Made by a program: the position numbers and the translations under genes | In this document: one piece after another, positions 4,060 through 50,370 of the stretch | How the letters are laid out: every line of letters starts with the position of its first letter | Numbering within the stretch: the stretch's first letter is position 1 | The notes under the pieces: generated by a model | What the model was told of the DNA's origin: nothing | Database searches by the model: none | What the model saw: the letters and a program-made list of their open reading frames with translations, nothing else | Assembly: GCA_963705885.1 (NCBI GenBank) | Contig: OY970120.1 | Span: forward strand, 3,497,676-3,561,675 | Direction of reading: 5' to 3' | Length of the DNA stretch: 64,000 bases | Source: an uncultured Actinomycetota bacterium | GTDB lineage: Bacteria; Actinomycetota; Actinomycetes; JACCUZ01

Positions 4060-4889
4060 CAGCGATCCCCCCGCACCGCGGTGACGAAGCGGTCGCGCCC
4101 CGCGAGGTCCGTGTGGTCGCGGATGCCGGTCCACCGCCCGGCCGCGACGAACACCGCCGGCGCCGCCTCGCCCTGCAGGTCCGCGTGCTCGACCACGACG
4201 AGACCTCCTGCCCGGAGCAGCCGGGCGGCGACCCGCTCGACCACCCGCACCGCGTCCAGCCCGTCCTCGCCCGACCACAGCGCAGCCGGGGGGTCGTGCT
4301 CCACCACTTCGGCGTCGCGGATCAGGGCGCCGACCGGGATGTAGGGCGGGTTGCTCACGACGACGTCGACCGAGCCGTCGAGCTCGCGGAAGGCACCGGC
4401 CATGTCGCCGCACACGAGGTCCACCGAGGTCCCCGCGCAGTTGCGGACCGCCCACGCGTGGGCTCGTGGGTCGGCCTCGACGGCGTGCACCGCGGCGGCC
4501 GGCACCTCCTGGGCGACGGACAGCGCGATCGCCCCGGACCCGGTGCAGAGGTCGACGACCACCGGTGCCGGCAGGTCGCGCGCGGCGGCGACGGCCGCCT
4601 CGGCCACCACCTCTGTCTCGGGACGCGGCACGAACACGCCGGGCCCGACCTCGAGCGTCAGGTGCCGGAAGTGCGCCCTGCCGGTGATGTGCTGGAGCGG
4701 CTCCCGGCCGGCCCGCCTCGCGACGTACGCCTCGAACTGCTCGCCGGGGTGGTCGTGGCGCCACAGCTCGCGCCGGTCGACGCCCAGCGAGAGGGCGGCG
4801 AGCTCCTCGGCGTCGAACCGCGGCGAGGGCACTCCCGCCTCGGTCAGCCGGTGGGTGGCCGACGCGATGCCCTCGCGCAGCCGGCTCAT
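4059..4889 (-). CDS. prmC: release factor glutamine N5-methyltransferase PrmC (HemK)
   Basis: 276 aa starting [15 protein letters not shown], with [13 protein letters not shown] (SAM motif) and VVSNPPYIP (NPPY). Overlaps the prfA stop (ATGA). Confidence 0.85.
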
Positions 4890-6268: not shown

Positions 6269-6357
6269 TGGTGATCTCCTCGTGGTGTCGGTCGCCGGGT
6301 CGCCGGGCCTCGGACGGCAGGCGTGAACCGGAACCAGCGCGCCAGTCTGCCAGAGAC

Positions 6358-6389
6358 CGGGGCCTCCCTCACAACCCGACGGAGGCCCC
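6358..6389 (-). terminator. 9-bp perfect inverted repeat (GGGGCCTCC-n14-GGAGGCCCC) overlapping the stop of the HAD gene; candidate intrinsic terminator of the accessory operon, upstream of the rpmE promoter
   Basis: Inverted repeat read directly from the sequence; GC-rich stem, weak U tract. Confidence 0.35.
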
Positions 6390-7109
6390 ACGGTGTTCCC
6401 GCGCCGCGGGCAGGAGCGACAGGAGCAGCCCGGTGGCGGCGGCGAAGGAGCCGACCGTCCGCCAGGGCCGGTGGGGACCGTCCGGCTCGGCCGCGTACTC
6501 CCCGGTGAGGACACGCACCGGGTGGATGCCCACCGCCAGCGCCCCGGCCACGTCCTTGGCCGGCCGGTCGCCGACGTGGACGACCTGGCCCGCCGGCAGC
6601 CCCAGCAGGTCCAGGGCGCGGCGGAACGGCGCGGGGTGGGGCTTGCGCAGCGCGCGGCCGGCGGCCCCGTCGGCGACCAGCTCGTCGGAGACGACCACGG
6701 CCTGGAGCAGGCCACGGACGCCGAGCGCGTCGAGCTTGGCGTGCTGGATGCGGGGGTTGCCGTCCGTGACGCACACGACGGGCGCCCGGGCGGCGAGCGC
6801 GCTCAGCGCGTCGACCACGCCGGGGTACGGCGCGAGGCGCGACGGTGCGTGCCCCGCGAACGCGTCGACCAGGTCGGGCACGTGCCCGGCGGGGCCGCCC
6901 AGTTCGGCGAGCGCCCGGTCGATGATGCCGCCCCGGTCGGACCCGGCCGCGGCGGCCCGGTGCAGCGCCGCCAGCAGCTCGTCCTCGGGGAGCCCCAGCA
7001 GGCCCCCGCGGGCGGCGACCGCCCGCCAGGCGCCGGCCAGCCAGCGCTCCTGCGGGAACAGCGTGTCGTCCAGGTCGACGGTGACGCCCCGGACCGGAGC
7101 GCCGGTCAC
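6369..7109 (-). CDS. HAD-superfamily hydrolase/phosphatase
   Basis: [11 protein letters not shown] (DxD nucleophile motif) plus a C-terminal [11 protein letters not shown] motif. GTG start overlaps the wecB stop (GTGA). Confidence 0.7.
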
Positions 7110-8263
7110 CGGGCGGGCCCGGCGAGGGCCGGGGTCGGCTGCTGCCCGAGGCCGGGCTCGCGCGGGGCGAGCAGGTCGCGCACGGCCGGCTCGTCGAGCA
7201 CCTCGACGACCCGGTCGGCCGTGTGCCCGTCGCCGTAGGGGCAGGGCAGGCCGGCGACCCGCGCCAGGGCCGCGGGGTCGGTGAGCGCGTCGGCGGCCGC
7301 GAGCACCCGGTCGCGGTCGAGCCCGGTGAGGACCGCCGCCCCGCTGCGGACGCCCTCCCACCGCGGTGTCGTCGTGCGCATCACGACGACCGGGACGCCG
7401 AGCCAGGACGCCTCCTCCTGCAGCCCGCCGCTGTCGGTCACGGCCACCCGGCTCGCAGCCAGGGCCGCCAGCAGCGCGGGGTAGGGCAGCGGGTCGGTGC
7501 AGGTCACGCCTGGGGCGGCCGACAGGTCTGCGAGCAGGTCCTGCTCGGCGAGCCGGGCCCGGGTCCGCGGGTGCAGCGGGAAGAGCACGGGCCCGTGGCG
7601 CTCGCCGAGGTCCGCGACGAGCCGGGTCAGCTCCCGCAGCCGCACCGGGTCGTCGACGTTGGTGGCGCGGTGCGCCGTGACGAGCACGCCCCGTCGGTCG
7701 GCCGGCGGGACGGCCGGGACGCCGCGCAGGCGCAGCGTGTCGATGACGGGGTTGCCCACCACGCGCACCCGCTCGGCCGGGACCCCCTCGTCGGCCAGGA
7801 ACCGCGCGGCCAGGTCCGTCGGCGCGAGGTGCAGTGTCGCCAGGGCCGCGACCATCCGGCGGTTGCTCTCCTCCATCGAGGTCTCGTTGAATGACCGCAG
7901 GCCCGCCTCGAGGTGGGCCACCCCGACCCCGTGACGGCGGGCCGCCATGGCCATCAGAGGCGCGGTCCAGGTGTCGCCGAGCACGAGCACGAGGTCCGGC
8001 CGGTTCTCCCCGACCTCCTGGAAGGAGCGCGCGAGCAGCGCACCGACCCGCTCCCCCTCGGTCCCGGCCAGCTCCCAGACGGCGTCGGGTGCGAGCCCGA
8101 GGTCGGCGAACACCTGGCCGTACATCCCGGCGTCGACGTGTTGCCCGGTCGCGACGCACCGCACCCGGTGACCGCGGGCACGCAGGGCGCCGACGACGCC
8201 GGCCAGCTTGATGACCTCGGGCCTGGTCCCCACCGGGACCGTGATCCGCAGCGGCTGCGTCAT
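7106..8263 (-). CDS. wecB: UDP-N-acetylglucosamine 2-epimerase (non-hydrolysing)
   Basis: MTQPLRITVPVGTRPEVIKLAGVV...HLEAGLRSFN...VVGNPVIDTL are epimerase motifs. ATG overlaps the stop of the upstream ATP-grasp gene (ATGA). Confidence 0.85.
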   Translation of the reverse strand: MTQPLRITVPVGTRPEVIKLAGVVGALRARGHRVRCVATGQHVDAGMYGQVFADLGLAPDAVWELAGTEGERVGALLARSFQEVGENRPDLVLVLGDTWTAPLMAMAARRHGVGVAHLEAGLRSFNETSMEESNRRMVAALATLHLAPTDLAARFLADEGVPAERVRVVGNPVIDTLRLRGVPAVPPADRRGVLVTAHRATNVDDPVRLRELTRLVADLGERHGPVLFPLHPRTRARLAEQDLLADLSAAPGVTCTDPLPYPALLAALAASRVAVTDSGGLQEEASWLGVPVVVMRTTTPRWEGVRSGAAVLTGLDRDRVLAAADALTDPAALARVAGLPCPYGDGHTADRVVEVLDEPAVRDLLAPREPGLGQQPTPALAGPAR

Positions 8264-9756
8264 CCCTCGAAGACCTCGCTGAAGTGGCGCATCATCCGCA
8301 CCCCGGGTCGGGCGACGAGCCGCTCGGCACGCAGCGGCAGCCCCAGCACCGCCCGGAGGTACTCCTCCACCAGGTCCGCGCCGGAGGCGAGGCTGAGCGG
8401 CAGCCCGCCGGAGAACCTCGGGTTGACCTCGAGCACGACGACGCTGCCGTCGTCCTGCACGAACCCCTGCACGTTGGCCGGTCCGGTGATCTCCACGGCC
8501 TTCAGGGTCAGTGCCACGACGTTGGCGACCTCGTCGTGGAGGAACGTCTCGCCCAGGGTGGAGATGCCACCTCGGGTCGCGAGCCGCCACCGGGCCGCCG
8601 CGCCGGCGAGGTTGCCCGAGGGCCCGACCAGTGCGTCGCAGGTGAACTCGCGACCGGTCATCATGGTCTGGACGATCGGGTCGGGCACCACGCGCAGGGC
8701 GCTGGCCAGCTGCGCCCGCGTGGAGGCGGTCACCACGTCGCGCGAGCCGCGTCCGAAGCGGGGCTTGACGACCCACGGCCCCGGCACGCCCTCTGCGCTG
8801 CCGAGGCCGGTCGCGGGCGTCGGCACCCCGCTCGCCGCGAGGACGGTGTGGAACCGCCACTTGTCGGTGCAGCTCTCGACCGCGTCGAGGCTCGGGAACA
8901 TCGTGGCGACGCCGGCCTCCTCGAGGTAGTCCGCAGCAGGGACCAGCGCGGCGTACTCCTCGGCCACGGTGCAGACGATCGCCCTCGCCCTCGACACGGT
9001 CGCGAACCGCAGCAGCGCGGCGACGTACTGCGGGTCGGTGCGCATCGGCACGACGTGGTGCTCGTCGGCGAGGCGGAGCCCGACGGCCGACGGGTCGGCG
9101 TCGACGGCGAGGACGTGGTGCCCTCGCCCCCGCAGGGCGCGGATCACGGCCACACCGGCCGGGCCGCCCGCCCCCGTGACGAGGACCCGGACCGGGGACA
9201 GGCGCTCGGGGTCGGGGAGCGGCTCGTGCCGCTGTGCCGGCGCCGGGTCGGCGTCAGCAGGCTCGTGGACGTGGTCCTTGCGCGTGCGGAACTCCTCGGC
9301 CCGCGCCGGGTCCAGCGACGGCGGAGGGACGGCGCCGGCGACCCCGGGGAGCATCGGCGCCGTGGCCCCGCCGTTGCGGAGCTCTGGATGCTTCTCGGTG
9401 TGCGCCCGTGCCCACAGCCGGAGCTCGACGACGGCGCCGGTCGAGGCCGGCTCCCACTGCCGGCTCGCCACGGTGCGCACGACTGCGGACAGGACGGCGG
9501 GGTCGGACTCGGACCGGACCGCGCGCAGCAGCGCGGGTGCCGTGGAGGCCAGCCCCATCTCGCCGGCCTGCAGGACCGCCACCTCCCGGACCGCCGGGTC
9601 CGGGTCGCGGAGCCCCGCCGTCACGCCACGGCGCACGCGCAGGAGCCGGGCGAGCCGCCAGCACGCCGCGACCAGCAGTGCCGTGATGGCCACGAGCAGC
9701 GCGATGCCCAGGACCAGCGACTGCTGCTGGTCCGTCGTCACCGCGAGAACGTCCAC
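8260..9756 (-). CDS. membrane-anchored ATP-grasp ligase (N-terminal TM helix + HEAT-like repeats + C-terminal ATP-grasp/carboxylate-amine ligase fold)
   Basis: 498 aa from GTG (VDVLAVTTDQQQSLVLGIALLVAITALLVAACWRLARLL forms the TM anchor). REVAVLQAGEMGLASTAPALLRAV looks HEAT-like. C-terminal half (VRVLVTGAGGPAGVAVIRAL...VVKPRFGRGSRDVV...VVLEVNPRFSGG) has an ATP-grasp fold. GGAG RBS upstream of the GTG. Confidence 0.6.
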   Translation of the reverse strand: MDVLAVTTDQQQSLVLGIALLVAITALLVAACWRLARLLRVRRGVTAGLRDPDPAVREVAVLQAGEMGLASTAPALLRAVRSESDPAVLSAVVRTVASRQWEPASTGAVVELRLWARAHTEKHPELRNGGATAPMLPGVAGAVPPPSLDPARAEEFRTRKDHVHEPADADPAPAQRHEPLPDPERLSPVRVLVTGAGGPAGVAVIRALRGRGHHVLAVDADPSAVGLRLADEHHVVPMRTDPQYVAALLRFATVSRARAIVCTVAEEYAALVPAADYLEEAGVATMFPSLDAVESCTDKWRFHTVLAASGVPTPATGLGSAEGVPGPWVVKPRFGRGSRDVVTASTRAQLASALRVVPDPIVQTMMTGREFTCDALVGPSGNLAGAAARWRLATRGGISTLGETFLHDEVANVVALTLKAVEITGPANVQGFVQDDGSVVVLEVNPRFSGGLPLSLASGADLVEEYLRAVLGLPLRAERLVARPGVRMMRHFSEVFEG

Positions 9757-9788
9757 ACTGCTCCATTCGGATGAACAGGACGTCGCCT

Positions 9789-10325
9789 TTAGAGGACGTC
9801 GCTCACTCGGGCCGCTCGCGGCATGGGCGCCGTCGCGGTGGGGAGGAGGAGGTAGAGCATCAGGAAGAAGCCGACCAGCGTGTAGGCCAGGGCGAAGAAG
9901 GTGCCGATCCAGTCGTGGAAGAGCACGAGTGCGCCGCCGCCGAGCTCGTAGCCCGCCCACAGCGACATCGTGATGCGCAGCACGTTGCAGGCGAGGACCA
10001 GCGCGGCCGCGACCCCGACGGCGAACAGCCGCCGCGGCCAGGGCCCGGACAGGATGAAGAACCCTATGCAGGCGAGGGCGAGCACGGGGATCACCGCGGA
10101 GCAGTACGGCGTGAGCTGCGCCCGGAAGGCCTCCTGGTCCGGTGGCAGCAGCTGGAAGAACGTCTCGTTCACCACCGAGGCGCGGCCGCCGAACGGGCTC
10201 AGCAGGCCCATCACGAGCTCGGACTCGAGGCGGCGGACCGGGGCGTTGAGCAGGCGGAAGCCGCCCAGCGCCACCGCCAGCGCCAGGCCGAGGAAGCCGA
10301 AGACGACGAAGCGGCGCCGCGTCAT
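9789..10325 (-). CDS. exosortase/archaeosortase-family protein, short Gram-positive type (XrtG-like)
   Basis: 178-aa polytopic membrane protein with motifs of the exosortase family: Cys in LTPYCSAVIPV, N-x-x-R in LACNVLRITMSLW, downstream LFHDWIGTFFAL. ATG overlaps the GT2 stop (ATGA). Always-adjacent GT2 matches the XrtG neighbourhood as I recall it. Confidence 0.5.
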   Translation of the reverse strand: MTRRRFVVFGFLGLALAVALGGFRLLNAPVRRLESELVMGLLSPFGGRASVVNETFFQLLPPDQEAFRAQLTPYCSAVIPVLALACIGFFILSGPWPRRLFAVGVAAALVLACNVLRITMSLWAGYELGGGALVLFHDWIGTFFALAYTLVGFFLMLYLLLPTATAPMPRAARVSDVL

Positions 10326-11713
10326 CCGTGCACCCCCGCACCCGCCGGGCCTTCGGCACCCTCCAGTGCCGACCACGAGGAGCGGGCGGTCTTGACCCAC
10401 GCGTAGCGACGCCCGAGCAGGCCGTCCACCCACGCCTTGGTGCACACGAGCATGAACACGACGAAGATCGGGGTCATCCAGGCGATCGACCAGGCCGAGC
10501 GCCGGGGCGCCCTGCCGACCATCAGCCCGACCGCCAGCTCGCAGAAGGGGCCGGCGAAGAGCAGCGCGGCCAGCGGCAGCATCTCGAACAGCGTGACCTG
10601 CGGGCCGAGCCCGCCGATGCGCAGCACCGTCATCAGCAGCGTGACCGTGCACAGCACGGGCACGTGGTAGACGAGCAGGAAGAGCATCGTCTCGACCTTC
10701 TCCAGCGGGGCGAGCCGGGTGCTGCTCAGCACGTGCCGGCGGTAGTCGCGCCAGACCTGCTGGTGGCCGCGCGCCCAGCGGTAGCGCTGCTTGACGAACC
10801 GCCCGAGGGTCGTGGCCCCCTCCTCGGTGTCGACCGCAGTGATGTCGTAGCGCACCCGGTCACCCCGGAGCACGACCCGCAGCGTCAGGTCCGTGTCCTC
10901 GGTGACGCTGTCGACGTTCCAGCCGCCCAGCGCGCGCAGCGTGCTGGCCCGCACGGCGCAGTTGGCCCCGCCGTACGCCGGCAGCTCGAACAGCGCCTGA
11001 CGGCCGTACTCGTTGACGAGGTAGCCGGAGAAGTAGTCGATCGCGATCGACCGGGCCAGCTTCGACTGGATGGAGTTGCGCACGATGCACCGGCCCTGCA
11101 CGGCCGACACGCGGGGGTCCTGGAAGTGCCGGACCAGCCGCTCCACGACGTTGCGGCGGGGGATGTGGTCGGCGTCGAAGATCACGATGATCTCACCGCG
11201 GGCGATCGCCGCGGCGTCGTTGAGGGCGCCCGACTTCCCGCCGCCGGCACCCGCCGGCCGGTTGAGCACCGTGATGTGCCGCTCGCCGGCCGTCAACGAC
11301 GCGAGCAGCTCGCCGGTCCCGTCGGTGGACGCGTCGTCGACGAGGATGATCTCCAGCCGCGACCGCGGGTAGTGCAGCGCCCGCAGACCCCGCACGAGGT
11401 TGTCTGCGACCAGCGCCTCGTTGTGGCAGGCGACCAGGACCGACACGTTCGGGCGGTAGGCCAGGTCGACCTCCGCGACGTCGTAGAGGTCGCGCGGTGC
11501 CCAGCGCACCGCGGCTGAGGCGAACGCGACGTGGCGCAGGAAGAAGACGAGGAACGCGAGGTTGACCAGCACCGACGCGGTGATGATGGCCCGGTCGACG
11601 CCGGCGACGGCGACGAGAAGCGCTCCCGCACCGACGATCCACAGGAAGGTCCAGGGGGCGGCGTCGGCCTTCGCCCCGCTCGACGTGACGGTGGCGGTGT
11701 GCGCGGTGCTCAC
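10322..11713 (-). CDS. processive family-2 glycosyltransferase (cellulose/chitin/PNAG-synthase-like, membrane-embedded)
   Basis: N- and C-terminal TM helices flank a GT-A core with DDASTDGT, FDADH (DxD), VTEDTD and QRYRWARG (Q-x-x-R-W), the signature of processive beta-glycan synthases. GTG start overlaps the PIG-L stop. Confidence 0.75.
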   Translation of the reverse strand: MSTAHTATVTSSGAKADAAPWTFLWIVGAGALLVAVAGVDRAIITASVLVNLAFLVFFLRHVAFASAAVRWAPRDLYDVAEVDLAYRPNVSVLVACHNEALVADNLVRGLRALHYPRSRLEIILVDDASTDGTGELLASLTAGERHITVLNRPAGAGGGKSGALNDAAAIARGEIIVIFDADHIPRRNVVERLVRHFQDPRVSAVQGRCIVRNSIQSKLARSIAIDYFSGYLVNEYGRQALFELPAYGGANCAVRASTLRALGGWNVDSVTEDTDLTLRVVLRGDRVRYDITAVDTEEGATTLGRFVKQRYRWARGHQQVWRDYRRHVLSSTRLAPLEKVETMLFLLVYHVPVLCTVTLLMTVLRIGGLGPQVTLFEMLPLAALLFAGPFCELAVGLMVGRAPRRSAWSIAWMTPIFVVFMLVCTKAWVDGLLGRRYAWVKTARSSWSALEGAEGPAGAGVHG

Positions 11714-12435
11714 GGCAGGAGGCGCGTCAGGCCGGTGTTTCCGGACGGCTCCGCAGCGTCGGCGGCGTCGGCGGCCTCACGCTCCAGCTCCAGCAGCTCG
11801 TCGTCGATCTGGCGCGACGAGGACCCGTGGCCGATGTCCCACACGAAGCGCGGGCTCTCGAACGCCTCGGCGTAGCCCACCTTGGCGCGCGACCCCCAGT
11901 AGCGTGCGCCCACCTCGACGGCGTCCAGGTCGACCATCGGGCACTGCATCACCTGCGACCAGTGAGCCCGCAGCGCGGCGAGCTTGCCGGAGAGCGTCTG
12001 GTCGACCTCGACGAACACGGTCGGGTCGAACGAGGTGGTCGACGGCGACTGGTAGAAGAGGACGCGGGCCAGCCGTCGCCCCGCCGCGAGCGCGGCCTGC
12101 GAGGTCGCGACGTGGTCCTGGTGCGTGTCGTGCGGCGCGTGAGCGTAGATCACGTCGGCGCCCACCCGGGCGACGACCTCGTCAAGGGCGGCCACCGCTT
12201 CGGGGCCGTTGGTCACCCGACCGTCGCTGAAGGGGCCCCAGACCAGGTTCGCGCCGATGACCGCGGCGGCGGCCTCCTGCTCGCGGACGCGCGTGGTGAG
12301 CCCCTGCGGCCCGTGCTCGCCCGGCGTCATGACGAGCATCGTCACCTCGTCGCCGGCCGCGACGTGGCGGAGCAGCGCACCCGCGCAGCCGAGCTCGATG
12401 TCGTCGGGGTGGGCCCCGATCGCCAGCACCTTCAC
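11710..12435 (-). CDS. PIG-L/LmbE-family N-acetylglucosaminyl deacetylase
   Basis: VKVLAIGAHPDDIELGCAG...HDTHQDH are the Zn-binding motifs of the LmbE/PIG-L family. GTG start overlaps the stop of the upstream paralog (GTGA). Confidence 0.8.
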   Translation of the reverse strand: MKVLAIGAHPDDIELGCAGALLRHVAAGDEVTMLVMTPGEHGPQGLTTRVREQEAAAAVIGANLVWGPFSDGRVTNGPEAVAALDEVVARVGADVIYAHAPHDTHQDHVATSQAALAAGRRLARVLFYQSPSTTSFDPTVFVEVDQTLSGKLAALRAHWSQVMQCPMVDLDAVEVGARYWGSRAKVGYAEAFESPRFVWDIGHGSSSRQIDDELLELEREAADAADAAEPSGNTGLTRLLP

Positions 12436-12971
12436 GGCGTCACCACCAGGCGGCGGGGACGCGCGACGACCACGAGCAGGCCCGTCACGACAACGGCCAG
12501 GACGCCGAGGAGCAGCGCTCCGACGTTACCCACCTGCGACACCGGCTTCGTCGCACATCGGCGCAGGTCCTCCACCTCGTCGTCGTCGATCTCGACCTCG
12601 GCGGTCCGGTTGCCCAGGCGCCAGGACATCTCCTCGCTGCCCGAGGTCGTCACGAACGCGTTCGTGTGCCGCCCGGGGGCGAACACCGTGGGCTGACCCT
12701 GGTCGTCCCCCCCGGGTGACACCCGGTTGTGGCTTCCCACTGCGACGACGGCGGTGTCCGAGGTCGGGTTGTCCCAGCCCCAGACGATCGTGGTCGACCC
12801 CGTTCCGTTGCGCCAGTAGCACTCCGCCACCGGCTGCAGCTGCTTGCAGGTGCCCGAGCCCATGGGCGGGCACTCCACCATCGCCGCCGAGGCCGGGCGC
12901 GCGAGGAGGGCCGTCACGCCCATCAGCACCAGGACGATGACGACGGCGACGCGAGGCAGCAGGGCTGTCAC
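12432..12971 (-). CDS. small secreted protein, paralog B, with C-terminal tripartite sorting-signal-like region (KPVSQVGN + TM helix + RPRR)
   Basis: N-terminal signal peptide (…LLARPASA|AM). Mature ~110-aa Thr/Val-rich domain with conserved DDxGQPTVFxPG. C-terminus CATKPVSQVGNVGALLLGVLAVVVTGLLVVVARPRRLVVTP. Clear paralog of the adjacent upstream gene. Confidence 0.6.
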   Translation of the reverse strand: MTALLPRVAVVIVLVLMGVTALLARPASAAMVECPPMGSGTCKQLQPVAECYWRNGTGSTTIVWGWDNPTSDTAVVAVGSHNRVSPGGDDQGQPTVFAPGRHTNAFVTTSGSEEMSWRLGNRTAEVEIDDDEVEDLRRCATKPVSQVGNVGALLLGVLAVVVTGLLVVVARPRRLVVTP

Positions 12972-13507
12972 GCGGGCGCCCGACCAGTGCGACGACCGGG
13001 GCGCCCGGACAAGGCCAGCGCCCCCGCGACCGTGACGACGGCAGCGAAGGCCAGGACCGCGAGCGCGTTGCCCTCGGCCGGCACGGGCTTCTCGGAGCAG
13101 CTGGTGACGGAGGCCGCAAGCTGCACCTTGTTCCCGGTCAGCTCCCAGTCCGCACCCTTGTCGATGTCGCGCATCGTGACGGTGGGGGCCCAGACGTTGC
13201 GGCGGGTGCCCGGCAGGAAGACGGTCGGCTGTCCGAGGTCGTCCTTGACAGCCGCTGCGACGTTCGTGACCTTGTTCTCCCCGCCGACGGGCACCGTGAC
13301 CGTCGTGGCGTTCGTGCTCGTGACCCCGATGCTGACAGTGACCGTCCCGTCAGCGTTGAGGAAGTAGCAGTCGACGAACGGAGTCAGCGACTTCTTCGCG
13401 GCGTCGGCGGCAGACGCTCCGGGGGCCCAGAGCACCCCCAGGAGGGCGATCGCGAGCGCGGCGACGACCAGCCGAGCCGTCCGCGCGAGAACCAACGAGA
13501 CCCGCAT
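12968..13507 (-). CDS. small secreted protein, paralog A, with C-terminal tripartite sorting-signal-like region (KPVPAEGN + TM helix + RPGRR)
   Basis: Signal peptide (…LWAPGASA|AD). Shares CY(F/W)xNxxG(T/S)xT, DDxGQPTVFxPG, LxGN(K/R), C(S/A)xKPVxxxGN with paralog B. C-terminus [43 protein letters not shown]. Strong GGAGGA RBS. First gene of the operon. Confidence 0.6.
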
Positions 13508-13654: not shown

Positions 13655-15474
13655 TCAGTCCTCGTCGCTGCCGTTGCCGTTGCCGTTGCCAGGCACCGGC
13701 ATCGTCTGCTGGACCTGCATGAGGAACTCGGCGTTGCTCTTGGTCTTCTTCATCCGGTCGAGCAGCAGCTCGAGCGCCTGCTGGGTCTCCAGCGCGTGCA
13801 GCACGCGGCGCAGCTTCCAGGTGATCTGGAGCTCCTCGCGCGGCATGAGGATCTCCTCCTTGCGGGTGCCCGACGGGTCGACGTCGACGGCCGGGAAGAT
13901 CCGCTTGTCCGCGAGCTTGCGGTCGAGCTTGAGCTCCATGTTGCCGGTGCCCTTGAACTCCTCGAAGATCACCTCGTCCATGCGGGACCCGGTCTCGACC
14001 AGGGCGGTGGCGAGGATGGTCAGCGACCCGCCGTTCTCGATGTTGCGCGCCGCGCCGAAGAACCGCTTCGGCGGGTAGAGCGCCGTGGAGTCGACGCCTC
14101 CGGAGAGGATCCGGCCGCTGGCCGGTGCCGCGAGGTTGTACGCGCGGCCCAGCCGGGTGATCGAGTCGAGCAGGACCACCACGTCGTGACCCAGCTCGAC
14201 AAGACGCTTGGCACGCTCGATGGCGAGCTCGGCGACCATCGTGTGGTCCTCGGCCGGCCGGTCGAAGGTCGAGGCGATGACCTCGCCCTTCACCGACCGC
14301 TGCATGTCGGTGACCTCCTCCGGACGCTCGTCGACGAGCACGACCATGAGGTGGGTCTCGGGGTTGTTCTGGGTGATCGCGTTGGCGATCGCCTGCAGCA
14401 CCATCGTCTTGCCGGCCTTGGGCGGGGAGACGATCAGGCCACGCTGGCCCTTGCCGATCGGCGCCACGAGGTCGATGACCCGGGTCGTCAGCACGCTCGG
14501 GTCGGTCTCGAGCCGCAGCCGATCCTGCGGGTACAGCGGGGTCAGCTTGGTGAACTCCACCCGGCTGCGCGCCTGGTCGGGCTCGGCGCCGTTGACGGAG
14601 TCGAGGCGGACCAGCGCGTTGAACTTCTCCTTGCGCTCGCCCTCGTGCGGCTGTCGCACCGCGCCCGTGATCGCGTCGCCCTTGCGCAGCCCGCTGTTGC
14701 GGACCTGGGCGAGCGACACGTAGACGTCGTTGGGACCGGGCAGGTAGCCCGACGTCCGCACGAAGGCGTAGTTGTCGAGGATGTCGAGGATGCCGGCCAC
14801 CGGGACGAGGACGTCGTCCTCGCTGATCTCCGGGAGCGCGCCGTCGGCGTCGCCGGGCAGGCCGTCGCGGCCCCCGCGCCGGTTGCGGTTGCGGTCGCGG
14901 TAGCGCCCGCGCCGACGGCCGCGCCCACCGCGGCCGTCCTCGTCGTCGTCGCCGTCGCGCGGGCCCTGCTGCCGGTCGCCCTGCGGCCGGTCGCCCTGCG
15001 GCCGGTCGCCCTGCGGCCGGTCTGCTGCTGCTGCCGGTCGCCCTGCTGCCGGTCGCCCTGCTGCCGGTCGCCCTGCTGCCGGTCGCCCTGCGGCCGGTCC
15101 CGCTGCTGCCGGTCGCGCTGCGGGCGGTCGCGCTGCGGCCGGTCGCCCTCCTGCTGCTCGCCGCGCTGCTCCCGGGACGGCTGCTCCGCGGGCGCCGCGG
15201 TCTCGGCCGCCGGCGGCGACGCCTGTGCCGGGGCACCGGAGCCGCCGGACTGGCGCTCCTTGATGGCCTCGATGAGCTGGCCCTTGCGCATGCGCCCCGT
15301 GCCGCTGATGCCCAGCTCGGAGGCGAGCCCCTGGAGCTCGGCCAGGACCATGCCGGAGAGGCCGCCACCCGCCTTGCGCGCGGGCTTTCGGGCGGGCTTG
15401 GTCTCGGCCGTCCCGCCGTCGGCGGGCGCGTCCAGGAGTTCTGTGCTGTCGGACACTGACTGGTCCTTCCTCAT
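13655..15474 (-). CDS. rho: transcription termination factor Rho, with an apparent +2/-1 frameshift inside the RD/QG-rich repeat linker (~15017-15033)
   Basis: N-terminus ([21 protein letters not shown]...[37 protein letters not shown], Rho_N domain) is in the frame of ORF 14542..15828. RNA-binding and ATPase body (…[17 protein letters not shown]…[22 protein letters not shown]…) is in the frame of ORF 13655..15799. The frames meet at an irregular 17-nt unit (ccggtctgctgctgctg) within otherwise 15-nt tandem repeats (ccggtcgccctgc[g/t]g = [10 protein letters not shown]). Confidence 0.8.
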
Positions 15475-15856
15475 CGACGAGGTCCTCGGGTGCGTCCCCG
15501 TGGCCCCTGCCGTGCTCTGTCGGCTGCGGTCCGCCCAGGGGCCGGTCCGCGGTGCCCGTCTTCGTCTCGTCGAGACGTCCATCTGGAGGGGGAAATCGTT
15601 CACCCGACACGACCGTTGCGACGGCCCGCTCCGCGGTGATCCCCCCAGGCCTCGCCGACTCAGCGGCTGCGACGAACGCGCAGTCGTGGGGGGTGGGAGG
15701 CCACTGTCGTCCGAGGACGCCGGGCGCCGGAGCGCCCGAGATCGTGGCGGAGCACCGGGCCACTCGCGGTGGCGTCTGGTGCGATGCCGAGCGTAACACC
15801 CCCCACCGCCGGATCGTCCCGACCGCACGAATGGGCGCGCGCCGCGCCCCGCCCGC

Positions 15857-23398: not shown

Positions 23399-23471
23399 GC
23401 CCCCGTAGCTCAGGGGATAGAGCACCGCCCTCCGGAGGCGGTGGCGTAGGTTCGAATCCTACCGGGGGCGC
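23399..23471 (+). tRNA. tRNA-Arg (anticodon CCG)
   Basis: GCCCCCG acceptor stem, GTAGCTCAGGGGATAGAGCA D-arm, anticodon loop CTCCGGA (CCG), T-arm GGTTCGAATCC, 3' CGGGGGC; cloverleaf folds by eye. Confidence 0.8.
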
Positions 23472-41286: not shown

Positions 41287-44200
41287 GTGTCAGAGCCGAC
41301 ACCGTCATCGGGCCAGGGCAGCCGGACGCATACCGGCTTCGGACCCAACGAGTGGCTCGTCGACGAGCTCTACCAGCAGTACCTGCAGGACAAGAACGCC
41401 GTCGACAAGGCCTGGTGGGACTTCTTCGAGGACTACCGGCCCGCCGACCAGTCCAGCCTGCGGGCCAACGGCGGGGAGTCGCGCCAGACGGCGGGCGAGG
41501 AGACCCCGACCCCCGCACCGCCCGCGCCGGCCGACCCCGCCCCGGTGAGTCGGGCCGACGGGCCGCCGCCGGTCGAGAAGACCGCGCCGGAGGAGACCGC
41601 GCCGGAGAAGGCCGCCGCCGAGAGGCCGGCTGCCGCGCCGGCCGAGAAGCCCGCGGCGACCAAGCCGTCCGACCCGCCGTCCGCCCAGGCGTCCGAGAAG
41701 GCCGCGACCTCACAGCCGGAGCCCGTCCGGCTCAAGGGCCCGGCGGCCCGGGTCGTCGCGAACATGCAGACCAGCCTGAGCGTCCCGACGGCGACCAGCG
41801 TCCGCGCCGTCCCCGCGAAGCTGCTCATCGACAACCGCACGGTGATCAACAACGCGCTGCAGCGCGGCCGGGGCGGCAAGGTCTCCTTCACCCACCTGAT
41901 CGGCTACGCCGTCGTGAAGGCCCTGGCCGTCATGCCGGAGATGAACCGCGGCTTCATCGAGGTCGACGGCAAGCCGGCGGTCACCCAGCCGGAGCACGTG
42001 AACTTCGGGCTGGCCATCGACGTCCAGAAGTCCGACGGCTCACGGACGCTGCTCGTGCCGTCGATCAAGGCCTCCGACGAGATGGACTTCTCCGGGTTCT
42101 GGGCCGCGTACGAGGACATCGTGCGGCGAGCGCGCAACAACAAGCTCACCGCCGACGACTTCGTCGGCACGACGATCAGCCTCACCAACCCGGGCACGAT
42201 CGGGACCGTCCACTCCGTGCCGCGCCTGATGGTCGGCCAGGGCACGATCATCGGCGTCGGCGCCATGGAATACCCCGCCGAGTACCAGGGTGCCGCCCCC
42301 GAGACGCTGTCCCGGCTCGCGGTCAGCAAGACCATGACGCTGACCTCGACCTACGACCACCGCATCATCCAGGGCGCGCAGTCCGGCGACTTCCTGCGCC
42401 GCATCCACGGGCTGCTGCTGGGCGAGGACGGCTTCTACGACGAGGTGTTCCGCGCGCTGCGCATCCCGTACGAGCCCATCCGCTGGGTGCGCGACATCCC
42501 GGCCTCGCACGAGGAGGACGTCGCCAAGCAGGCGAGGGTGCAGGAGCTCATCCACGCCTACCGCGTGCGCGGCCACCTGATGGCCGACACCGACCCGCTG
42601 GAGTTCCGCCAGCGCTCGCACCCTGACCTCGACGTCATCACCCACGGCCTCACCCTGTGGGACCTCGACCGCGAGTTCGCCACCGGCGGCTTCGGCGGTG
42701 AGCCGATGGCCACGCTGCGCAAGATCCTCGGCGTGCTGCGCGAGTCGTACTGCCGGCGCATCGGCATCGAGTACATGCACATCCAGGACCCCGAGGAGCG
42801 TCGCTGGATCCAGGAGCGCGTCGAGGTCCCGTTCGCCAAGCCGAACCGCGAGGACCAGCTCACGATCCTGCGTCGGCTCAACGCCGCCGAGGCGTTCGAG
42901 ACGTTCCTGCAGACGAAGTACGTCGGCCAGAAGCGGTTCTCCCTCGAGGGCGGCGAGGCGGTCATCCCGCTGCTCGACGAGGTGATGACCAGCGCGGCCG
43001 AGGCCGGGCTCGACGAGGTCACCATCGGCATGCCGCACCGCGGCCGCCTCAACGTCCTGGCCAACCTCGCCGGCAAGAGCTACGGGCAGATCTTCCGCGA
43101 GTTCGAGGGCAACCAGGACCCGCGCTCGGTCCAGGGGTCCGGCGACGTGAAGTACCACCTCGGCACCGAGGGCGAGTTCACGGCGCCCGACGGGAGCAAG
43201 ACGAAGGTCTACCTCGCCGCGAACCCCTCGCACCTCGAGGCGGTCAACCCGGTGCTCGAGGGCATCACCCGAGCGAAGCAGGACCGCATCAACAAGGGCG
43301 AGAGCGGCTTCACGGTGCTGCCGGTCCTGCTGCACGGCGACGCGGCCTTCGCCGGCCAGGGGGTCGTGGCCGAGACCCTGAACCTCTCCCAGCTGCGCGG
43401 CTACCGCACCGGCGGCACCGTCCACGTCATCGTGAACAACCAGGTCGGCTTCACCACGTCACCGGCCGCCTCGCGGTCGTCGTTCTACTGCACCGACGTG
43501 GCGCGAATGATCCAGGCGCCGATCTTCCACGTCAACGGCGACGACCCCGAGGCGTGCGTCCGCGTCGCCAAGCTCGCTTTCGAGTACCGCCAGGCGTTCA
43601 AGAAGGACGTCGTCGTCGACCTGGTGTGCTACCGCCGGCGCGGCCACAACGAGGGCGACGACCCGTCGATGACCCAGCCGCTGATGTACCGCCTGATCGA
43701 GGGCAAGCGATCGGTGCGCAAGATCTACACCGAGTCCCTCATCGGTCGCGGCGACATCTCGGTCGAGGAGGCCGAGCAGGCGCTGCGCGACTACCAGGGC
43801 CAGCTGGAGCGCGTCTTCACCGAGACCCGCGAGGCGACCACCGCCCCGGCGGACGAGAGCACCGGCGAGGGCATCGAGGCGCCGTCGGAGCAGAAGGCGT
43901 CGGTCGGGTCGGCGCGCGCCACAGCGGTCGACCTCGAGGTGATCAAGCGCATCGCAGACGCGCACGTCACGATGCCCGACGGCTTCACCGTGCACCCCAA
44001 GCTGATGCCGCTGCTGCAGAAGCGCGCGGCGATGGCCTCCGAGGGTGGCATCGACTGGGCGATGGGCGAGCTGTTCGCCTTCGGCTCCCTGCTCCTGGAG
44101 GGCAAGCCGATCCGGCTGGCGGGTCAGGACAGCCGCCGCGGAACGTTCGTGCAGCGCCACGCCGTGCTCACCGACAAGGCCACCGGTGACGAGTGGATGC

Positions 44201-50156: not shown

Positions 50157-50226
50157 ACCCAGCCCCCCGATCGACCCAGCCCCCGAGTCGACCCAGCCCC
50201 CGATCGACCCAGCCGCCGAGTCGACC
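50157..50226. repeat. four tandem 16-17-nt repeats (CCCAGCCCCCGA[T/G][T/C]CGA) ending in the CACGTG-containing palindrome CCACGTGG, located 12 nt upstream of the ADH start codon (5' UTR/promoter region)
   Basis: Tandem periodicity read directly from the sequence. Confidence 0.6.
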
Positions 50227-50287
50227 ACGTGGGGTAGGCGGGGGCGGGCGACACGAGGCGGCGCGGCCTGCTGTCGCCCGCCCAAGC

Positions 50288-50370
50288 CTGTTGCGGCCCC
50301 TGTTGCGGCCCCGGTGGCGCCCGGTTGCGGCCCCTGTTGCGGTGCCTGGCGCGATGCCCGGTGCGACGTG
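50288..50370. repeat. about seven degenerate tandem 12-nt repeats (CCTGTTGCGGCC-like)
   Basis: Periodic CC(T/G)GTTGCGG(C/T)(C/G)C units; intergenic between malic enzyme and the ADH gene. Confidence 0.55.

Follow-up and report, generated by a model that had tools for sequence, protein, structure and literature searches.

The question raised by this locus is whether an actinobacterial rho gene is truly divided between two reading frames or whether the division was produced during the reconstruction of its sequence. The window (the whole stretch of DNA that was analysed, 64 kb in length) contains a single copy of rho, which is read on the minus strand from a GTG codon at position 15456 to a stop codon at 13655-13657 and which occupies two reading frames. 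A Shine-Dalgarno-like sequence, GAGGAAGGA, can be read directly at 15464..15472 (minus strand), 7 nt 5' of the start codon.

The rho gene and its tandem array

The 5' part of the gene (15022..15456, minus strand) encodes, from the GTG codon at 15456 onwards, the Rho_N domain, the start of the disordered, low-complexity linker and a tandem array up to the motif QQGDR-QQQQ (translated as MSDSTELLD...Rho_N...QQGDRQQQQ). Its N-terminus matches those of the intact relatives P0001, P0002 and P0005. The 3' part (13655..15021, minus strand) is in the -1 frame and encodes the remaining array, an RG-rich linker, the OB fold and the RecA-type ATPase (translated as DRPQGDR...OB fold...ATPase). The Rho_N helix bundle (PF07498) was detected by Pfam only in the first frame, at 15247..15360 on the minus strand (45 bits, E-value 1.1e-11, cutoff 24.9; residues 39-76 in the translation of window:14542-15474:-). 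The Rho_RNA_bind OB fold (PF07497; 14576..14800, minus strand; 91.8 bits, residues 334-408) and the RecA-type ATPase domain ATP-synt_ab (PF00006; 13871..14485, minus strand; 90 bits, residues 439-643) were detected only in the second frame, the residue numbers being those of the 714-aa ORF 13655..15799. Both the Walker A (PPKAGKT) and the Walker B motifs are intact in the translation of the ATPase. The passage from the N-terminal frame to the frame of the body requires a shift of -1 (or +2). As assembled, Rho is not encoded by a single ORF, the frames of Rho_N and of the body differing by -1 with a junction at 15017-15033. The original prediction that rho lies in two frames meeting at a 17-nt unit is thus borne out by translation and by the Pfam matches.

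The tandem array (14972..15138, minus strand) is composed of 15-nt units encoding (P/Q)Q(G/R)DR and is located in the N-terminal insertion domain (NID), between Rho_N and the OB fold. When it is split at the ends ACCGG or ACCGC, we obtain eleven exact 15-nt units and one irregular 17-nt unit, CAGCAGCAGCAGACCGG (15033..15017, minus strand), which is the site of the frame change and the reverse complement of the sequence ccggtctgctgctgctg that had been pointed out originally. This unit is found at the border between a run of identical QQGDR units and a run of PQGDR units. Tandem Repeats Finder (TRF) reports the array at 14963-15162 (period 15, 13.2 copies, score 277). It is by this score the strongest tandem repeat of the 64-kb window and therefore not a chance feature. 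No single contiguous deletion or small insertion was found that turns a regular array into the sequence of the window. The only solutions by a single insertion are trivial, i.e. a whole novel block of 17 or 32 nt.

The order of the domains is the one known from the Rho proteins of M. tuberculosis (PDB 7oqh) and Micrococcus luteus, with a Rho_N helix bundle, a disordered insert rich in Arg, Asp, Gly and Gln, an OB fold and a RecA ATPase. Such NIDs are common in the high-GC Actinobacteria, where they are disordered and functionally important (PMC8828861). Contrary to the described NID-containing Rho proteins, the insert of the window is derived from an unusually regular 15-nt array with a copy number that is variable among close relatives, and the gene is not one ORF as assembled. 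A canonical Rho whose NID is encoded by repeats in variable number is in itself a protein of an already known kind.

The sequence of the junction bears on a first explanation, according to which full-length Rho would be produced by programmed recoding at the CAG run, either by -1 ribosomal frameshifting or by transcriptional slippage. Both frames are open through the junction, and a -1 shift in CAGCAGCAGCAG-A would give QQQQ-DRPQGDR, which is a plausible linker. However, the junction (CGG followed by four CAG codons and by ACC GGC) contains no slippery heptamer of the form X XXY YYZ, a Gln tRNA on CAG is unable to re-pair in the -1 frame (GCA), and no A/T homopolymer is present at the site for transcriptional slippage. 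Furthermore, the fold of the 121 nt that start at the junction is no more stable than those of shuffled sequences (minimum free energy -56.3 kcal/mol, mean of the shuffles -58.3 kcal/mol, z = +0.61), and at least the same stability is reached by 152 of the 200 shuffles.

Comparison with the same species and with short-read relatives

A protein search using the minimally repaired Rho as query found no intact Rho protein from the same species. In this search we detected a 90%-identity cluster of truncated products without Rho_N (P0010, P0122 and P0123), the bodies of which are 100% identical to the rho body of the window. The DNA was traced for two members of the cluster, P0010 and P0122, which correspond to the loci L081 (ENA ERZ25039516, contig_39194, 54 kb) and L082 (ENA ERZ25039498, contig_3093, 834 kb). 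Over 7.6 kb, these loci are 99.57% and 99.74% identical to the window, respectively. They come from separate ENA metagenome assemblies of different samples, with Flye-style contig_N names. An exact look-up of the neighbouring threonine synthase recovered the 834-kb sister contig and one contig of more than 1 Mb, with no short-read assembly among the matches, and a 38-nt anchor that is specific for the species and lies downstream of the array had 0 matches in the JGI metagenomes, which thus provide no independent short-read copy. A GC3 frame plot of the whole window was also tried. Gene boundaries and frame breaks were inseparable in it without homology, and the comparison with the sister contig was used instead.

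In L081 and L082, rho is also broken inside the array, by a lesion that is different from that of the window. This lesion is a 16-nt unit, CCAGCAGGGCGACCGG, situated about 60 nt upstream of the break of the window, at a site where the window has the correct 15-nt unit CCGCAGGGCGACCGG (near 15092). Conversely, two regular 15-nt units are present in L081 and L082 at the site of the 17-mer (CAGCAGGGCGACCGG or CAGCAGCACGACCGG; in L081 they encode QQGDR-QQHDR), and the window is 13 nt shorter there. The lesion of the window thus does not recur at its position in the separate assemblies of this species, and the two lesions occupy the opposite ends of the identical QQGDR run. An ancestral 21-nt unit from which GCCC would have been lost, as had been suggested, finds no support, the sister assemblies having plain 15-nt units at this place and one more unit overall.

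The window and L082 are comparable over about 12.2 kb, with about 10 SNPs and 14 indel columns, all 14 of which are inside the array. Relative to L082, the MAFFT alignment contains two gaps of 9 and 4 nt. With the 1 nt at 15092, the net difference amounts to 14 nt, a length that is not divisible by 3 and does not correspond to a whole unit. Outside the array the consensus sequences of the window and of L082 appear accurate, with no other indel differences in 12 kb. An error, if there is one, is therefore highly local. When compared with both other assemblies, L081 has two more indels of one base each. One is an additional A around codon 12 of rho (locus position 2816, window ~15421). The other is a base missing from the PIG-L gene (locus position 6499, window ~11752), and it alters the length of the called PIG-L protein (235 versus 241 aa). 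These indels are consistent with a consensus of lower coverage and lower accuracy.

Concerning the relatives assembled from short reads, rho is intact in L084 (k141 naming), L085 and L086 (both JGI), with 2, 4 and 8 clean in-frame 15-nt units, respectively. The comparison of unit count and frame with close relatives, which had been proposed as a check, thus gives whole units in every case, in agreement with replication slippage, by which a 15-nt array changes its length in entire units. Across the relatives the copy number takes the values 2, 4, 8 and about 12 units, and it also varies between assemblies of the same species.

These comparisons add to what the junction says of recoding. The two-frame layout is not conserved: rho is in a single frame in the closest relatives, and in the sister assemblies a shift of +1 would have to take place about 60 nt upstream, against a -1 shift in the window. 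Programmed frameshifting had been left open at the outset; given the lack of a heptamer and of a structure and the opposite shift in the sister assemblies, it can largely be set aside, and we consider recoding of either type to be barely credible.

The variation of the unit number could also be taken as the sign of a contingency locus, in which slippage in the array would switch Rho on and off. The array has in common with the contingency loci of Neisseria and Haemophilus that it is a coding tandem repeat of variable copy number observed in an out-of-frame state. The repeat units of contingency loci are not multiples of 3, and slippage by whole units toggles the frame. In the window, by contrast, the frame is broken by a partial unit, and the repeats have lengths of 15 nt and 3 nt (CAG). 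Both lengths are multiples of 3, whole-unit slippage preserves the frame and therefore cannot toggle it. In addition, all short-read relatives are in frame at any copy number, and the lesions are partial units rather than products of slippage. On the arithmetic of the unit lengths, phase variation by slippage in the CTG tract, another mechanism that had been kept open, is largely dismissed and would be highly improbable here.

No stop codons and no further indels were found in either half of rho in the window. Comparison with the relatives assembled from short reads gives dN/dS values of 0.09-0.10 for the body and of about 0.3 for the N-terminal part, which is mostly disordered. The insertion of one base at the junction gives a Rho of 600 aa. 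This repaired protein matches TIGR00767 with 664 bits (cutoff 509) over profile positions 6-414 of 415 and NF006886 with 599 bits (cutoff 315). It aligns with M. tuberculosis Rho (7oqh) over residues 11-587 (E-value 4e-205), where the array coincides with the N-terminal insertion domain. The signs expected of a pseudogene, namely additional disabling mutations or relaxed selection, are thus lacking, and such a state of the gene is still compatible with a very recent event.

The main rival to a consensus artefact is a genuine and recent frameshift in the sampled population, rho being then either a very recent pseudogene or a gene expressed as two pieces. One piece would consist of Rho_N and the linker. 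The other, with the OB fold and the ATPase, would be translated from a start codon inside the gene, e.g. the GTG of the 381-aa protein P0123. The break is present in the deposited sequence, rho is broken in all three assemblies of the species with a lesion shared by two of them, and both frames are open over a long stretch, neither product being cut at once. A family of paralogues consisting only of the body is known in NCBIfam (NF041509, "Rho, short form" or Rho2, 360 aa), and P0123, with its OB fold and ATPase, would resemble this architecture. However, the body of the window (repaired residues 220-582, window ~13700-14800) scores 577 bits, which is below the short-form cutoff of 628 and well above the cutoff of canonical Rho, and, contrary to NF041509, it has an intact Rho_N immediately upstream. 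The genuine mutation would also require that the frame had been broken at least twice, independently, within one stretch of 180 nt, in strains separated by about 1 SNP per kb and in a gene that is otherwise undamaged. The lesion of +2/-13 nt needs at least two events and does not resemble the products of replication slippage.

Also in favour of a genuine mutation, Rho is dispensable in some Gram-positive bacteria. The original view that it is essential in most actinobacteria does not, to our knowledge, extend to the whole phylum. The part of this view that stands is its essentiality in M. tuberculosis and M. luteus, which is documented (PMC8828861).

Frame breaks and assembly technology

For each actinobacterial rho locus that was retrieved, the frames of Rho_N and of the body were compared. 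In the set of GTDB species representatives, both domains were detected in 58 rho loci, and the frames are discordant only in L031, L053 and L059, which are all MAGs of the Microflora Danica (MFD) project. Discordance thus concerns 3 of 10 MFD MAGs versus none of the 48 isolates and other MAGs (Fisher test, p = 0.0039). The 20 metagenome contigs that were added (JGI, SPAdes naming) contain no discordant locus. For the combined 78 other actinobacterial loci, the proportions are 3/10 in MFD and 0/68 in the remaining ones (p = 0.0016). A fourth discordant rho was detected in L087, which belongs to another species and comes from ERZ25039504, an assembly of the same accession block with a Flye-style contig name. 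This locus encodes P0107, a protein without Rho_N from the first protein search. Each of the four additional breaks falls within, or at the border of, a short tandem array in the linker, composed of KPRDE units in L031 (break at ~4277-4341), GGQ units in L053 (~4229-4311), RENGA units in L059 (~4605-4670) and DRDRQ units in L087 (~2598-2726). This class of lesion therefore follows the assembly technology and not the phylogeny.

The MFD MAGs are Nanopore-only and were obtained with Flye (--meta --nano-hq) followed by one round of Medaka (PMC12313526). The error check of their authors was directed to low coding density, low coverage, low GC and long homopolymers (PMC12313526). A local error in an array of a 73%-GC genome would escape flagging. 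From the naming of the contigs and the proximity of the accessions, we infer that ERZ25039498, ERZ25039504 and ERZ25039516 also belong to the MFD project. The window itself was most likely sequenced on the Nanopore platform, with long reads only.

Residual indels in Nanopore-only assemblies are reported chiefly from homopolymers (Sereika et al. 2022, PMC9262707; PMC12313526). The lesion of the window has in common with them a frame-breaking error of 1-2 nt in an otherwise accurate consensus, with no polishing by short reads. In contrast to the published cases, it is situated in a short-period repeat at 73% GC and not in a homopolymer or a low-GC genome. A motif-specific basecalling error (e.g. 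at CCGG) was considered as well. The same GACCGG-CCGCAG junction is right three times in the same contigs, and the broken arrays of the other species have no common motif. An error of this type is therefore unlikely.

From these sequence comparisons, we consider it very probable that the break in rho is a consensus artefact of a long-read-only metagenome assembly, located inside the 15-nt array. The indel or assembly error associated with the repeat, which was the preferred explanation of the original prediction, is in this way supported both by the sister assemblies and by the technology control. One observation stands against it: the identical 16-nt lesion is found in both L081 and L082, which come from different samples, along with a linked SNP at 15198, and this is the pattern expected of a real inherited allele. 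The shared lesion would also fit an alignment artefact that recurs, from one assembly to the other, at the edge of the same run.

Breaks of this kind occur only in Nanopore-only assemblies and in none of the 68 loci from isolates and short-read data, and a genuine mutation would require independent events in four other species as well. A real frameshift in the sampled population is for these reasons unlikely. A wider form of the same idea is that the partial-unit lesions are real and that NID arrays are hot spots of out-of-frame indels in wild soil actinobacteria. We hold this to be very unlikely. In that case, natural populations would repeatedly carry split or inactivated alleles of rho, giving a fragment with Rho_N and linker and a Rho reduced to its body from an internal start. 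Only long reads would reveal these alleles, to which culture-based and short-read data would be systematically blind. If the break were real, against the evidence, a central transcription factor would be inactivated or split again and again in nature.

Under a consensus artefact, the failure may be explained as follows. The array contains an identical QQGDR run, and the number of whole units would differ among cells and strains. Reads of unlike copy number, or reads aligned ambiguously, would push the gaps to the ends of the perfect run, where column-wise polishing would then retain part of a unit and leave a 17-mer. The 17-nt unit would thus have been made by the long-read-only consensus itself, most likely with Nanopore reads, Flye and Medaka. 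Column-wise consensus over reads of mixed length or ambiguous alignment would likewise account for the other partial units, and copy-number heterogeneity in the population probably aggravates the error. The true array is probably in frame and has four or five QQGDR units here, which would give a Rho of about 599-604 aa. As far as can be judged from the sequence, the locus is very probably an ordinary functional actinobacterial rho with an array-encoded disordered insertion domain.

The biological weight of the break is thus small, a normal rho with a repeat-encoded disordered insertion domain being known in actinobacterial Rho. The break has its value as a warning, because Nanopore-only MAGs from soil can contain partial-unit errors in short-period coding repeats while their surroundings are essentially perfect. 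About one third of the surveyed Nanopore-only actinobacterial rho genes are broken in this way. The gene callers then produce truncated or chimeric "Rho" proteins (P0010, P0122, P0123 and P0107) that enter the protein databases, and the breaks in the arrays could be misread as signs of recoding or of an important gene turning into a pseudogene. Before pseudogenisation or recoding is claimed in long-read-only MAGs, coding tandem repeats should be checked at the level of the reads.

Neighbourhood of rho and other features of the window

The gene order hom-thrC-thrB-rho is found at this locus, as in M. tuberculosis. Between the stop codon of thrB and the start of rho, about 400 nt (15457-15856) contain no convincing ORF and gave no match in Rfam. 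Long rho leaders serve the autoregulation of Rho in other bacteria, and by analogy this region could be a candidate for a long rho leader. At the Rfam gathering threshold, the only matches in the window are the L31-Actinobacteria leader (51 bits; 6290-6337, minus strand), upstream of rpmE, and a tRNA (23399-23470, plus strand).

A block of about 7 kb (6369-13507, minus strand) separates rho from the L31 leader and from rpmE-prfA, whereas in L087 the genes rpmE-prfA-prmC come directly after rho. The block contains two tandem paralogues of 179 aa (12968-13507 and 12432-12971, overlapping by 4 nt), each with a signal peptide, a C-terminal hydrophobic segment and an Arg-rich tail, and without any match in Pfam. 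It also encodes a PIG-L deacetylase, a GT2 glycosyltransferase, a protein with HEAT and ATP-grasp domains, a UDP-GlcNAc 2-epimerase and a HAD hydrolase. An Exosortase_EpsH gene is present in the corresponding block of L084 and L086, and because of this the 179-aa paralogues may be candidate sorting substrates.

The other tandem arrays of the window were considered as additional sites of error. The array at 41575 is included in an intact 1269-aa ORF similar to 2-oxoglutarate dehydrogenase and is uninformative. The arrays in the interval 50157-50342 are intergenic and equally uninformative. They comprise two adjacent arrays, 50157-50226 (period of 17/33 nt) and 50287-50342 (period of 12/22 nt), and they are flanked by two minus-strand ORFs, one resembling a zinc-type dehydrogenase and the other malic enzyme.
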